Of a DNA stretch of 64,000 bases, positions 16,405 through 19,871 are shown one piece after another. This DNA comes from an uncultured Acidobacteriota bacterium (GTDB lineage: Bacteria; Acidobacteriota; Blastocatellia; RBC074). Every line of letters begins with the position of its first letter. The first letter of the stretch is position 1. The notes under the pieces are model-generated. The model was not told where the DNA came from, did not search any database, and saw only the letters and a list, made by a program, of their open reading frames with translations. A program made the translations under genes and the position numbers. Location: the NCBI GenBank assembly GCA_963796275.1, contig CAWCKY010000003.1, forward strand, positions 544,001 through 608,000. Reading direction: 5' to 3'.

Positions 16405-16890
16405 TTATCTCTTCTGCCTTTCCGATTCGAATTGCTGGGTCGGTTCTTCAATAATGCTGTTATACGCGGTTGACGGCTCGTGGAGCACGCGATTAGTGCC
16501 TCTCGGTATTTCAGCGGGAGAATAATCGGTAGGCCTGGATGGCTTTTTCTCCTCGACCTTGCCGGCAATTTTGATCAATCCGAGCAGGTGGCGGCAAATA
16601 AGAATAAGAGCGCCGAATCCGCTCATCCCGAAAAGTATCGGGATCGGCGTTTTCCCCTCGTCGATCACCATAATTATTACAGTTCCTATCGTAATGAAGA
16701 GAAAGCCGAAGATACTGAGCCAGGCGACGATCTTTATTACCGACGATGGTTCAAATTGAGGGACATTCGCGCCTGTCGTCATCTCGCTCACGATTTCACG
16801 TGCGCGATCGATCGCGATCAGATTTGTCCCGCATCGTGTGCAGTACTTCTGACCTTTCGAATTTTCAGCCCCGCAATCCGGACAGAACAT
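16405..16890 (-). CDS. zinc-ribbon domain membrane protein
   Basis: MFCPDCG...YCTRCG followed by two TM helices. Confidence 0.82.
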   Translation of the reverse strand: MFCPDCGAENSKGQKYCTRCGTNLIAIDRAREIVSEMTTGANVPQFEPSSVIKIVAWLSIFGFLFITIGTVIIMVIDEGKTPIPILFGMSGFGALILICRHLLGLIKIAGKVEEKKPSRPTDYSPAEIPRGTNRVLHEPSTAYNSIIEEPTQQFESERQKR

Positions 16891-16991
16891 GCCGCATCTC
16901 CTCCTCGCCCAACATATTTTTCAAACTATACTCGGTAAGAAAAACATTTTCCATTTTTCATCTTATATTTTTCATGTTTATCTTCCCGGGC

Positions 16992-17021
16992 TTGACGGAC
17001 TTACCCGATGCGTTGTAAGGT
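16992..17021 (+). promoter_or_regulatory. putative sigma70 promoter for the riboswitch leader
   Basis: TTGACG-18 nt-TAAGGT, 20 nt upstream of the first aptamer. Confidence 0.5.
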
Positions 17022-17040
17022 TCAGCTTCTAAAATTTAAT

Positions 17041-17091
17041 CGTGGTGATTTATGGCGGCTTGCTCCACGTAAATAATGCGCTAAAAAGCCC
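17041..17091 (+). ncRNA. SAM-II-like riboswitch aptamer 1
   Basis: CGUGG-UGAUUU-auGGC-GGCUUGC-u-CCACG-uaaauaaugc-GCUAAAAA-GCC: P1 CGUGG/CCACG, conserved GAUUU, UUGC and GCUAAA, pseudoknot pair GGC/GCC. Confidence 0.78.
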
Positions 17092-17115
17092 GATGGCTCC
17101 TGCAGATAGGAATTG

Positions 17116-17153
17116 AAGCCTCGCGCTTTTGGGCGCGGGGCTTTTGAATTTTT
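17116..17153 (+). terminator. intrinsic terminator after aptamer 1
   Basis: aagcctcgcgc-ttttgg-gcgcggggctt followed by ttgaattttt. Confidence 0.75.
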
Positions 17154-17172
17154 GCCGAAAATATTTTTACAG

Positions 17173-17224
17173 AAGATTTTTTGTAAAGATTTTTTGTAAA
17201 GATTTTTTGTAAAGATATTTTCTA
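17173..17224. repeat. 13-bp tandem repeat (AAGATTTTTTGTA)x3 plus one degenerate copy
   Basis: Perfect units at 17173, 17186, 17199; degenerate at 17212. Confidence 0.92.
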
Positions 17225-17276
17225 GAAGCTATCTGGTTAAGCAGTCATCTGGTAATAAGCTGTTTTGAAAATATGA

Positions 17277-17325
17277 GGTGGCGATTTAGGCGACTTGCTC
17301 CACTGGAAAAACTGCTAAAGAGCTA
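17277..17325 (+). ncRNA. SAM-II-like riboswitch aptamer 2
   Basis: GGUGG-CGAUUU-aGGC-GACUUGC-u-CCACU-ggaaaaacu-GCUAAAGA-GCU: same core as aptamer 1 with compatible pair changes. Confidence 0.75.
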
Positions 17326-17332
17326 GGTGTTT

Positions 17333-17371
17333 TAGGCCCTACGCTGACTTTAGCGTAGGGCCTATTTTATT
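17333..17371 (+). terminator. intrinsic terminator after aptamer 2
   Basis: Perfect 13-bp stem taggccctacgct/agcgtagggccta then ttttatt. Confidence 0.85.
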
Positions 17372-17419
17372 GATCGCGGTCATCAATCAACAAAATGGAA
17401 ATACGGGGCGGAAATATCA

Positions 17420-18190
17420 ATGCTTAGTTTCAATGATCAGATCGTGCTGATTACAGGGGCTTCGCGCGGGATCGGCCGTGCGGCGGCCCTCAAATTCGCG
17501 GAGGCGGGCGCGGCGGGGGTTGTCATCAACTACCATCGTGATAGCGAAGCGGCATCGCGGGTAGCCGAAGAGGTGGAGCGTGCGGGAGCGCAAGCTCTGG
17601 TTTGGCGGGCGGACGTCTCACGCGCGGATGAAACAGCAGCAATGGTGGAGCAAGCCATGACGCGCTTCGGCAGGCTCGATGTGATGGTAGCAAATGCGGG
17701 CATCTGGCCTCCGCAAGACCGCGCGATCATCGATCTCGATGAAGCTCAGTGGGAACAAACGATTCGCATCAATGTCGATGGGATTTATCACGTATGCCGG
17801 GCAGCTGCGCGCGTCTTCGTTACGCAGCGCCGCGGAAACATCGTCACCATTAGTTCGACCGCGGGACAGCGAGGCGAGGCGGGGCACGCGGATTATGCCG
17901 CTTCGAAGGGAGCGGTTATCAGCTTCACCAAATCGCTGGCATCCGAACTCGGTCGCTTCAACGTGCGCGCTAACTGCGTCGCGCCGGGTTGGGTCGACAC
18001 CGATATGGCTGCTCCCGCCCTGCGCGATGATGAGGCGCAATTGCATAAAATCAGAAATACGATTCCGATCGGCCGCATTGCCACGGCCGAGGATGTCGCA
18101 GGCCCCATACTTTTTCTGGCTTCCGATCTCGCGCGTCACATTACCGGTGAAATTCTCAATGTGAATGGCGGATCGGTGTTGTGCGGATGA
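17420..18190 (+). CDS. SDR-family (FabG-like) NAD(P)-dependent oxidoreductase
   Basis: TGASRGIG, ANAG, YAASK, NCVAPG. Confidence 0.92.
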   Translation: MLSFNDQIVLITGASRGIGRAAALKFAEAGAAGVVINYHRDSEAASRVAEEVERAGAQALVWRADVSRADETAAMVEQAMTRFGRLDVMVANAGIWPPQDRAIIDLDEAQWEQTIRINVDGIYHVCRAAARVFVTQRRGNIVTISSTAGQRGEAGHADYAASKGAVISFTKSLASELGRFNVRANCVAPGWVDTDMAAPALRDDEAQLHKIRNTIPIGRIATAEDVAGPILFLASDLARHITGEILNVNGGSVLCG

Positions 18191-18295: not shown

Positions 18296-19537
18296 ATGAG
18301 TTACGTCAAGCGACTGAAGTGTAAAATTTGCAATACGCCTTATCCGGTCGAGCCGCTTTCAATTTGTGAGGAGTGTTTCGGTCCGCTCGAAGTCGATTAT
18401 GACTATGATGCAATAAAAGAGAAGCTTACGCGCGAGGAGATTTCTTCGCGACCGAAAACCTTGTGGCGTTACCGCGAGCTTCTGCCCATCGACGGCGATC
18501 CGACCGTCGGTCTACAAAGCGGGGGCACCCCGCTCGTGCGGGCCCATCGTCTGGCCGAGGCTCTGGGTGTGCGCGAGCTTTACATCAAAAACGACGCGGT
18601 CTCGCATCCGACTTTGTCGTTTAAAGATCGGGTCGTCGCCGTCGCACTCTCGAAAGCCCGTGAGTTCAAATTTGAGGCGGTCGGCTGCGCTTCGACCGGA
18701 AATCTCGCCAACTCGGTCGCGGCCAATGCAGCAGCGGCCGGATTCCCCGCATTTATTCTCATCCCTGATAATCTGGAAAAGAGCAAAGTGATCGGCACAC
18801 AGATATTCGGAGCGAATGTCATCCCGGTCCGCGGCAATTACGATGACGCCAACCGTTTATGCAGCGAGATAGCAGGACGCCACCGCTTCGCCTTCGTTAA
18901 CGTCAATCTGCGTCCGTTTTACGGCGAGGGATCGAAAACATTCGGTTACGAAATTGCTGAGCAGTTGGGCTGGCAAACCCCGGATGCGATCGTCGTCCCG
19001 ATGGCCGGCGGATCGCTGATCACAAAAATCCATAAGGCATTCAATGAGCTGGGCCAATTAGGCCTCATTACACCCGCCGAAACCCGGTTTTATGGCGCTC
19101 AGGCCACGGGTTGCAATCCGATATCAGCCGCGGTCAAAGCCGGGACCCGCGAAATATCTCCCGTCAAACCCAATACGATCGCGAAGTCGCTCGCTATCGG
19201 CAACCCGGCCGATGGTTATTTTGCTACCGGCGTCATCGAGGAGACGGGCGGCTGGTCTGAGGATGCGAGCGATGCGGAGATCATAGAGTCGATTAAATTG
19301 CTGGCCGAAACAGAAGGCATTTTTACGGAGACGGCGGGGGGCACGACGCTCGCCGTGACCAAGAAGTTGCTGGCGCAGGGCCGACTTTCCCCCAAAGATC
19401 GCATAGTCGTCGCGATTACAGGGAATGGTTTGAAGACTCAGGAAGCATTATCGCTTTCGAACCTCGATTCAATTGAACCAAAGCTTTCGGCATTCGAGGA
19501 GCTTCTGGGCGCACGATTGGATGCGCTCGCGGCGTGA
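18296..19537 (+). CDS. threonine-synthase-like PLP enzyme (possible sulfur-carrier-dependent homocysteine synthase)
   Basis: N-terminal CxxC..CxxC, PTLSFKDR (PLP lysine), ASTGN, TGNGLK; adjacent to a MoaD/ThiS gene. Confidence 0.9.
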
Positions 19538-19595: not shown

Positions 19596-19871
19596 ATGTC
19601 TCAAAGAGTGATAATTCCAACTCCATTGCGCCGCTTCACCAATGGTGCGGAAACAATTGAGGTGCAGGGTAAGACGATCGGCGAGATATTCGATCAATTG
19701 GAAGCCAGTTATCCGGGCATTCGCGCTCGCTTGTGCGAGGAGAACGGCGAATTGCGCCGCTTCATTAACGTTTATGTCGACGGCGAAGACATTCGCTTCC
19801 TCGATCGATTGCAGACCAGCGTTGGCGAGAAGGCCGAAGTATCGATTGTTCCGGCGATTGCCGGGGGGTAA
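19596..19871 (+). CDS. MoaD/ThiS/CysO-family sulfur carrier protein
   Basis: [18 protein letters not shown]-terminal PAIAGG. Confidence 0.92.

Follow-up and report, generated by a model that had tools for sequence, protein, structure and literature searches.

A stretch of 64,000 nucleotides (nt) from an uncultured soil Acidobacteriota bacterium of the class Blastocatellia (contig CAWCKY010000003.1, positions 544,001 to 608,000 of the forward strand; hereafter, the window) carries, ahead of a gene for a short-chain dehydrogenase/reductase (SDR), a leader containing two aptamers of the SAM-II class of S-adenosylmethionine (SAM) riboswitches. The genome comprises 9.46 Mb on 7 contigs. The leader begins with a promoter-like motif (16992..17021; -35 box TTGACG at 16992-16997, 18-nt spacer, -10 box TAAGGT at 17016-17021), from which transcription is predicted to start at ∼17028-17030. 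It is followed by aptamer 1 (17041..17090), intrinsic terminator 1 (17115..17153), a spacer, aptamer 2 (17277..17324), intrinsic terminator 2 (17333..17372), and, as the first regulated gene, that of the SDR (17420..18190; 256 amino acids), all on the + strand. The initial annotation of this DNA had listed the same elements, with coordinates within 1-2 nt of those given here. In that annotation, one promoter served both aptamers, which in turn preceded the SDR gene; this is supported by a conserved motif, TTGACN-N17-19-TANNNT, lying 45-56 nt upstream of helix P1 of aptamer 1 in 31/31 distinct tandem loci. Two complete aptamer-terminator units would, from this layout, reside on a single transcript; among the public sequencing runs searched, none from RNA was listed. 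Among the loci listed, relatives have these parts in the same succession, from the promoter motif through two aptamer-terminator units to the gene.

Two SAM-II-class aptamers and their relatives

The two aptamers were divided into helices according to the P2a/P2b layout of the SAM-II class. P1 of aptamer 1 is formed by CGUGG (17041-17045) and CCACG (17065-17069), which enclose UGAUUUAUGGCGGCUUGCU; 3′ of P1, an A-rich stretch is followed by GCGCUAAAAAGCC. The GAUUU element is at 17047-17051, P2a pairs GGC (17054-17056) with GCC (17088-17090), and P2b pairs UUGC (17060-17063) with GC(U)AA (17080-17084). In aptamer 2, P1 is formed by GGUGG (17277-17281) and CCACU (17300-17304), which enclose CGAUUUAGGCGACUUGCU and are followed 3′ by GGAAAAACUGCUAAAGAGCU; GAUUU is at 17283-17287, P2a pairs GGC (17289-17291) with GCU (17322-17324), and P2b pairs UUGC (17295-17298) with GC(U)AA (17314-17318). 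Every conserved SAM-II element (GAUUU, UUGC, GCUAAA, P1, and P2a) is therefore retained in aptamer 2 as well.

Rfam covariance models were run on the whole window at gathering score and, permissively (E ≤ 10), on 16900-17500 (601 nt). The whole-window scan returned just two matches, one transfer RNA and SAM_alpha (RF00521). The latter match (17032-17105) covers aptamer 1 and, at 37.5 bits, is above the gathering score of 36 (E 7.4e-5 over the 64 kb of the window). In the permissive scan, the SAM-II long-loop model RF01726 gave 17.6 bits (gathering score, 44), and no SAM-V match was among the 16 rows at E ≤ 10. The remaining rows, from microRNA, leader, and small RNA (sRNA) families, were far under their gathering scores and were taken as chance matches to terminators or AT-rich repeats. 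The comparison with Rfam models that had been proposed in the initial annotation was thus positive for aptamer 1, which passes SAM_alpha, remained below the gathering score for aptamer 2, and gave no match to SAM-V.

A covariance model specific for the lineage (R1) was built from an alignment of 73 aptamers collected with a regular expression in which GTGG, TTGC, CCAC, and CTAAA were fixed. When 100 loci were searched with the model, the identical 77 units of the regular-expression set were recovered and no extra ones. Aptamer 1, which is part of the training set, scores 69.0 bits with R1. In its own genome, R1 has three matches, the two aptamers described here and one elsewhere, and because all three were in the training set, their scores are partly so by construction. 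The third unit (G000:C4:1380618-1380679, - strand, locus L002; 67.7 bits with R1) is followed by a terminator and is upstream of an open reading frame (ORF) whose translation reads as a homocysteine S-methyltransferase joined to a part resembling methylenetetrahydrofolate reductase. Two other weak RF00521 matches in this genome were discarded: L003 looks coding by eye, L005 is just upstream of a start codon, and neither matches R1.

RF00521 matched at E ≤ 0.1 in 38 of 41 related genomes, and above the gathering score in 13 of the 41; many of these matches were same-strand pairs, 113-179 nt apart. R1 matched 39 of 40 genomes of the family, and tandem pairs, defined as two R1 matches on one strand within 300 nt, were present in 26 of them. 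Thus, the doublet is the common form in this lineage of Blastocatellia. Two more families of the class have it as well (G027, G031, G029, and G033), and in four genomes of a further family, f3, the RF00521 scan revealed no tandem pairs, only single units. Across the class, 142 of 151 sampled genomes had R1 matches; in a sample of the phylum, R1 matched 12 of 121 genomes, comprising all 9 that belong to the class and 3 of the 112 that do not. Weak R1 matches of 30-37 bits (G200, G215, and G237) came from a single family of the phylum that lies beyond the class. The tallies of the 41-genome and 40-genome sets include one unpublished genome (G004), as does that of the 151-genome set (G141); removing them alters no conclusion. 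Single units in relatives precede genes that read, from their sequence, as metH-like, metY-like, and cystathionine-synthase-like.

Aptamers in first and second position differ consistently across genera, namely, in U or C after P1, in CG or AU as the closing pair, in loop length, and in GCG or CUG before CUAAA. Pair counts over 72 distinct aptamers demonstrated that P1 and the pseudoknot helix P2a covary. The closing pair of P1 was CG in 45 aptamers, AU in 18, UG in 3, UA in 2, GC and GU in 1 each, and other in 2; it is mostly C-G in first-position and A-U in second-position aptamers, and G-U in aptamer 2 of the window. The four inner pairs are invariant, so that P1, 99.4% paired over the 72 sequences, has its compensatory changes at the closing pair. 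P2a was 94.4% paired, with both-sided changes at two of its three pairs (pair 20-60: GC 34, AU 15, GU 11, UA 1, UG 1, other 10; pair 21-59: GC 66, AU 5, GU 1; pair 22-58: CG 65, UG 5, other 2). P2b (UUGC with GC-U-AA) was complementary in 72/72, and invariant. Over all helices, 98.4% of cells were paired versus 93.0% in shuffles, none of which (0/500) reached the observed value, and pairing fell to 27-53% when the partners were slid by 1-3 columns. Rfam scores, conserved elements, and pair counts support the earlier proposal that both elements are H-type pseudoknot aptamers of the SAM-II class.

Terminators and predicted antiterminators

Terminator 1 has a stem of 13 pairs (17115-17144), 8 of them G-C, which is followed by a T-rich tract; its hairpin has a predicted energy of -22.4 kcal/mol. 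The stem of terminator 2 (17333-17364) has 14 pairs, 8 of them G-C, and is followed by TTTTATTG; here, the hairpin is at -25.6 kcal/mol. A terminator scan of the + strand identified exactly two terminator-like sites, compared with 1.1 ± 1.4 in shuffled sequences, which alone is not significant. Across all units examined, a hairpin of ≤-8 kcal/mol with a T-run was present within 140 nt after 77/77 units (73 of them distinct). The scan and the set of units together support the claim of the initial annotation that each aptamer has an intrinsic terminator of its own.

For both units, an antiterminator can be predicted in which the 3′ tail of the aptamer pairs with the top of the terminator that follows it. 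Antiterminator 1 (17077..17139, + strand) would pair the tail at 17077-17093 with the top of terminator 1 at 17120-17139 (RNAduplex, -19.1 kcal/mol), and antiterminator 2 (17311..17358, + strand) the tail at 17311-17327 with the top of terminator 2 at 17339-17358 (-13.5 kcal/mol). Folds of leaders that were truncated, or in which the 3′ arm was blocked, had the tail paired with the 5′ arm and loop of the terminator, that is, with the same partners as in the duplexes. The tail of aptamer 2, GCUAAAG, is complementary to the loop of its own terminator, CUUUAGC.

In each unit, duplexes were computed between the 17-nt tail and the upper half of the terminator that follows it, which comprised the loop and, from either arm, the 8 nt adjacent to the loop. 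The mean duplex energy in 73 units was -13.9 kcal/mol, versus -7.8 kcal/mol for shuffled tails, with p ≤ 0.05 in 51/73 and p ≤ 0.01 in 31/73 units. Cognate pairings of tail and terminator were more stable than swapped ones in 27 of the 31 tandem loci. The complement of CUAAA, UUU[AG]G, was present in the linker or terminator of 43/73 units; in 37 of these 43, the base after CUAAA was complementary to the base 5′ of UUU[AG]G, which none of 5,000 permutations reached (0/5000; mean 19.6).

The operon downstream

The product of the first gene, the SDR, belongs to Pfam adh_short_C2 (1.4e-66). It passes the cut-offs of NCBIfam subfamily models only (glucose 1-dehydrogenase, 251.1 versus 215; FabG-type 3-oxoacyl-acyl carrier protein reductase, 233.5 versus 222) and, among the 25 best NCBIfam families, reaches the cut-off of no equivalog model. 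The second gene (18296..19537, + strand) encodes a threonine-synthase-like pyridoxal phosphate (PLP) enzyme of 413 amino acids with an N-terminal zinc ribbon (TIGR00260, 282.6 bits), a candidate MetM-type homocysteine synthase. It is followed by a gene (19596..19871, + strand) for a sulfur carrier of the ThiS/MoaD family (91 amino acids; Pfam ThiS, 7.4e-14), a candidate MetO-type carrier with the C-terminus ...AIAGG. Among the loci listed, part of the family has the SDR gene immediately after the doublet, and in other relatives, the thrC-like gene comes next to it. Of 76 related loci whose downstream DNA is long enough, 19 have a small ORF ending in GG after the thrC-like gene; a 20th match (L077) was spurious.

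The genome contains three paralogues of the thrC type, the operon gene and two others above the TIGR00260 cut-off (G000:C6:667890-668891, L115, and G000:C1:822471-823448, L117). One of the two adjoins an aspartate kinase gene and is 33% identical to the thrC-like gene of the operon; this paralogue is the likelier housekeeping threonine synthase. The other one adjoins a gene related to the cysteine-synthase family that is below the curated cut-offs of those models.

The nearest thrC-like loci among named records, with proteins 79-85% identical, are labelled Blastocatellia or Acidobacteriota. Two contigs labelled "uncultured Heliomicrobium sp." (L035 and L045) have a tandem SAM-II leader of the Blastocatellia type and a thrC-like gene that is 83% identical, and the label of these bins looks doubtful. 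Beyond the group with tandem SAM-II leaders, 20 loci chosen from 80 thrC-like ones, one of them labelled Acidobacteriota (L044), were scanned with Rfam. In 12 of the 20, a SAM-I riboswitch (46-101 bits) directly precedes the thrC-like orthologue, which indicates that this gene is SAM-regulated in several phyla. The orthologues at these loci (L039, L041, L042, L044, L048, L053, L059, L060, L065, L075, L100, and L101) are 59-67% identical and stem from Gemmataceae, Acidimicrobiia, Omnitrophica, Mariprofundaceae, Sumerlaeota, Planctomycetota, and others.

A threonine-synthase homologue under putative SAM control and, adjacent to it, a GG-terminated sulfur carrier is the gene context of MetM/MetO. 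In Table 2 of GapMind 2026 (PMC13759103), MetM is given as "MetO-thiocarboxylate-dependent homocysteine synthase," and a passage in PMC12172450 reports a SAM riboswitch upstream of metM of S. albulus. Most likely, then, the operon serves to make homocysteine from O-phosphohomoserine by a route of the MetM/MetO type. On its other side, the leader is flanked by a divergent ORF of 161 amino acids (16405-16890, - strand), ∼100 nt upstream of the riboswitch promoter, whose only family match is a zinc-ribbon domain at the N-terminus of its product.

Proposed serial attenuation, its alternatives, and known counterparts

With considerable confidence, we interpret the leader as two SAM-II-class riboswitches placed in series behind one promoter, each with its own terminator and each switched by an antiterminator, and governing a MetM/MetO-type operon. 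When SAM is scarce, the 3′ tail of an aptamer (GCUAAA-N-GCC/GCU, the strand of P2b and P2a) would be free to pair with the upper terminator (top of the 5′ arm, loop, and top of the 3′ arm), and RNA polymerase would read through the resulting antiterminator. When SAM is bound, the tail would be locked in the pseudoknot and its triplex, the terminator would fold, and transcription would stop. Transcription of the operon would require passage of both checkpoints, so that read-through would be the product of two independent decisions, which should reduce leakage and make the dose response somewhat steeper. For two identical switches that act independently and with full efficiency, the calculated 90%-to-10% range is about 40-fold, versus 81-fold for a single switch. 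The identification of tandem, terminator-coupled SAM-II elements is well supported by the sequence itself, its conservation, and the covariation.

Several observations weigh against this interpretation. The RF00521 match of aptamer 2 (17268-17339) reached 18.7 bits (E 0.089 in the 601-nt search), short of the gathering score of 36, and its 67.1 bits with R1 come from a model trained on aptamer 2 itself. Most core positions are invariant and hence uninformative about pairing, and several core words had been fixed in the regular expression with which the aptamers were collected. Because the relatives are not independent, the shuffle and permutation figures overstate significance. As for the antiterminators, swapped partners were favoured in 4 of the 31 tandem loci (L015, L017, L022, and L025), and the second position flanking CUAAA and UUU[AG]G pairs in only 18/43 units. 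A narrower test, of the tail against loop and 3′ arm, was weak (mean z -0.94; p ≤ 0.05 in 11/73 units); it was superseded by the upper-half test, given the weak enrichment and terminators mis-picked in L002, L007, L013, L016, and L043. Moreover, at -22 to -26 kcal/mol, the complete terminator hairpins surpass the antiterminators (-13 to -19 kcal/mol) in stability, which means that the switch would need kinetic control. The putative MetM/MetO assignment, finally, is based on gene context.

The persistence of both aptamer types side by side, together with the consistent differences between first and second position across genera, could also mean that each type now differs from the other in the ligand that it prefers or in its affinity (e.g., SAM versus S-adenosylhomocysteine or another SAM-related compound), which would make the leader a two-input gate or a two-threshold device. 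We consider this improbable: the differences are all outside the invariant GAUUU/UUGC/GCUAAA core, features of the two types are found mixed in single units that precede classic methionine genes, and the target genes make sense with SAM alone. The bases that contact SAM are taken from the crystal-structure literature.

Little credence is likewise given to two transcription units, with aptamer 1 and terminator 1 forming a stand-alone SAM-responsive sRNA and aptamer 2 having its own promoter in the spacer. The spacer is indeed AT-rich, repetitive, and long: P1 starts are 236 nt apart, the longest distance of the 31 tandem loci (114-179 nt in the 30 others), and terminated SAM-II leaders of S. 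meliloti persist as sRNAs according to a passage in PMC9373788. However, the promoter motif, present upstream of aptamer 1 throughout, was found in the inter-aptamer spacer of none of the tandem loci (0/31; one promoter type was searched, TTGACN-N16-19-TANNNT), and a strict sigma-70 scan called no + strand site in the spacer, nor at the leader promoter. In addition, a P1-start distance of down to 114 nt leaves hardly any room after terminator 1 in relatives. The extra length of the spacer in the window includes a 13-nt tandem repeat, AAGATTTTTTGTA, in 3.8 copies (17173..17221, + strand). This repeat has no further occurrence in the 9.46-Mb genome, is absent from the same-genus locus L016, and is probably a lineage-specific expansion. 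The z of -3.3 obtained for the fold of the spacer was attributed to A/U repeats pairing among themselves, and no function was drawn from it. A UUGAAAA motif (17265..17271, + strand) is 6 nt upstream of P1 of aptamer 2; in the 5′ flanks of L010-L045, the word UUGA(A/C)AA is ∼5-8 nt ahead of P1 in the majority of second-position aptamers, as it is in several single ones, which is too close for it to act as a -35 box for the aptamer.

Least probable of all is that only aptamer 1 is a working riboswitch and aptamer 2 a decaying duplicate, its hairpin being a constitutive attenuator or irrelevant, since the low RF00521 score (18.7 bits versus 36) and the G-U pairs closing P1 and within P2a of aptamer 2 are set against a second-position type kept in 26/40 family genomes and two other families (G027, G031, G029, and G033), core bases that are all intact, compensatory changes in P1 and P2a, and a terminator loop that tracks its own tail (CUUUAGC/GCUAAAG). 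Aptamer 2 is not a decayed copy. Its low Rfam score reflects divergence of the lineage from the alpha-proteobacterial seed, because many second-position aptamers and single units of methionine genes in relatives are also below the cut-off; the second-position homologues of aptamer 2 reach up to 33.3 bits with RF00521.

The SAM-II riboswitch (SAM_alpha) was reportedly described by Corbino et al in 2005, and its crystal structure is said to be that of a metX riboswitch. The elements of the window share with the class (RF00521) the P1 hairpin, the GAUUU loop, the UUGC...GCUAAA pseudoknot strand, and the distal GGC/GCC helix, as well as the position upstream of methionine genes, commonly with a terminator after the aptamer (PMC2258182). 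They differ from it in their host, a member of the Acidobacteriota (class Blastocatellia) rather than of the Proteobacteria or Bacteroidetes, in a shorter central loop, and in that most copies are below the gathering score (13/41 genomes above).

The initial annotation had regarded SAM-II elements as single and mostly translation-controlling, and the doubled arrangement as unusual. Neither premise was borne out. SAM-II aptamers are usually followed by a terminator (PMC2258182; also stated in a passage of PMC9373788), and terminator linkage is their most frequent form (PMC2258182). A passage in Sherlock et al (2022; PMC9481103) reports 44 tandem SAM-II doublets, "some instances" of which have a terminator per aptamer, and reads them as pseudo-cooperative; in the family studied here, tandem pairs occur in 26/40 genomes. 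The published doublets are like the present one in having two SAM-II riboswitches in series, sometimes with a terminator each; the main-text passages on them do not say in which taxa or before which genes the 44 examples lie, and do not contain the antiterminator logic and target operon described here. The sharper SAM response that had been proposed for the window would fit the published pseudo-cooperative idea. The arrangement is therefore of a known kind; its antiterminator design can be read from the sequence, and its target operon is informative.

A second comparison is offered by the bi-mechanism SAM-II/SAM-V tandems of marine bacteria (Poiata et al, 2009, cited after a passage of PMC9481103), where one leader likewise holds a terminator-bearing SAM-II riboswitch and, behind it, another SAM sensor. 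There, the second sensor is SAM-V and translational, whereas here, both are SAM-II with terminators. The metM/MetO system of Streptomyces (Hasebe et al, 2024, as described in passages of PMC12172450 and PMC13759103) resembles the present operon in having a thrC-like PLP enzyme with a SAM riboswitch and a small sulfur carrier. In the window, by contrast, class and number of the riboswitches are different and the SDR gene leads the operon, and the likeness is one of gene context. A published spermidine variant was set aside as irrelevant because it belongs to SAM-I, not SAM-II (PMC10853860). Full-text literature searches found no paper linking SAM-II to Acidobacteria or Acidobacteriota, those listed for Acidobacteria being, by their titles, on other riboswitches. 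In a 2025 survey of contiguous riboswitches, Acidobacteria are not mentioned and the thrC entry concerns T-boxes in Bacillota.

A wider reading is conceivable, although as a whole we regard it as rather doubtful. The doublet may be an old, class-wide two-stage attenuator, with distinct aptamer paralogues across several families of Blastocatellia, each co-evolved with the top of its own terminator and possibly differing in SAM threshold or kinetics. It might then mark a MetM/MetO-type O-phosphohomoserine route that is widespread outside Actinobacteria, under SAM-II here and under SAM-I in Planctomycetota, Acidimicrobiia, Omnitrophota, and others, with the SDR having been recruited in one subgroup. 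The significance of the finding is modest, and the current understanding of riboswitch architecture is unchanged. It does show clearly that SAM-II riboswitches extend to Acidobacteriota, and the doublets are a naturally replicated set that is useful for examining how pseudoknot aptamers couple to terminators. The switches also flag the thrC-like/ThiS-like pair as methionine-pathway genes across several phyla, which could aid annotation of the pathway.

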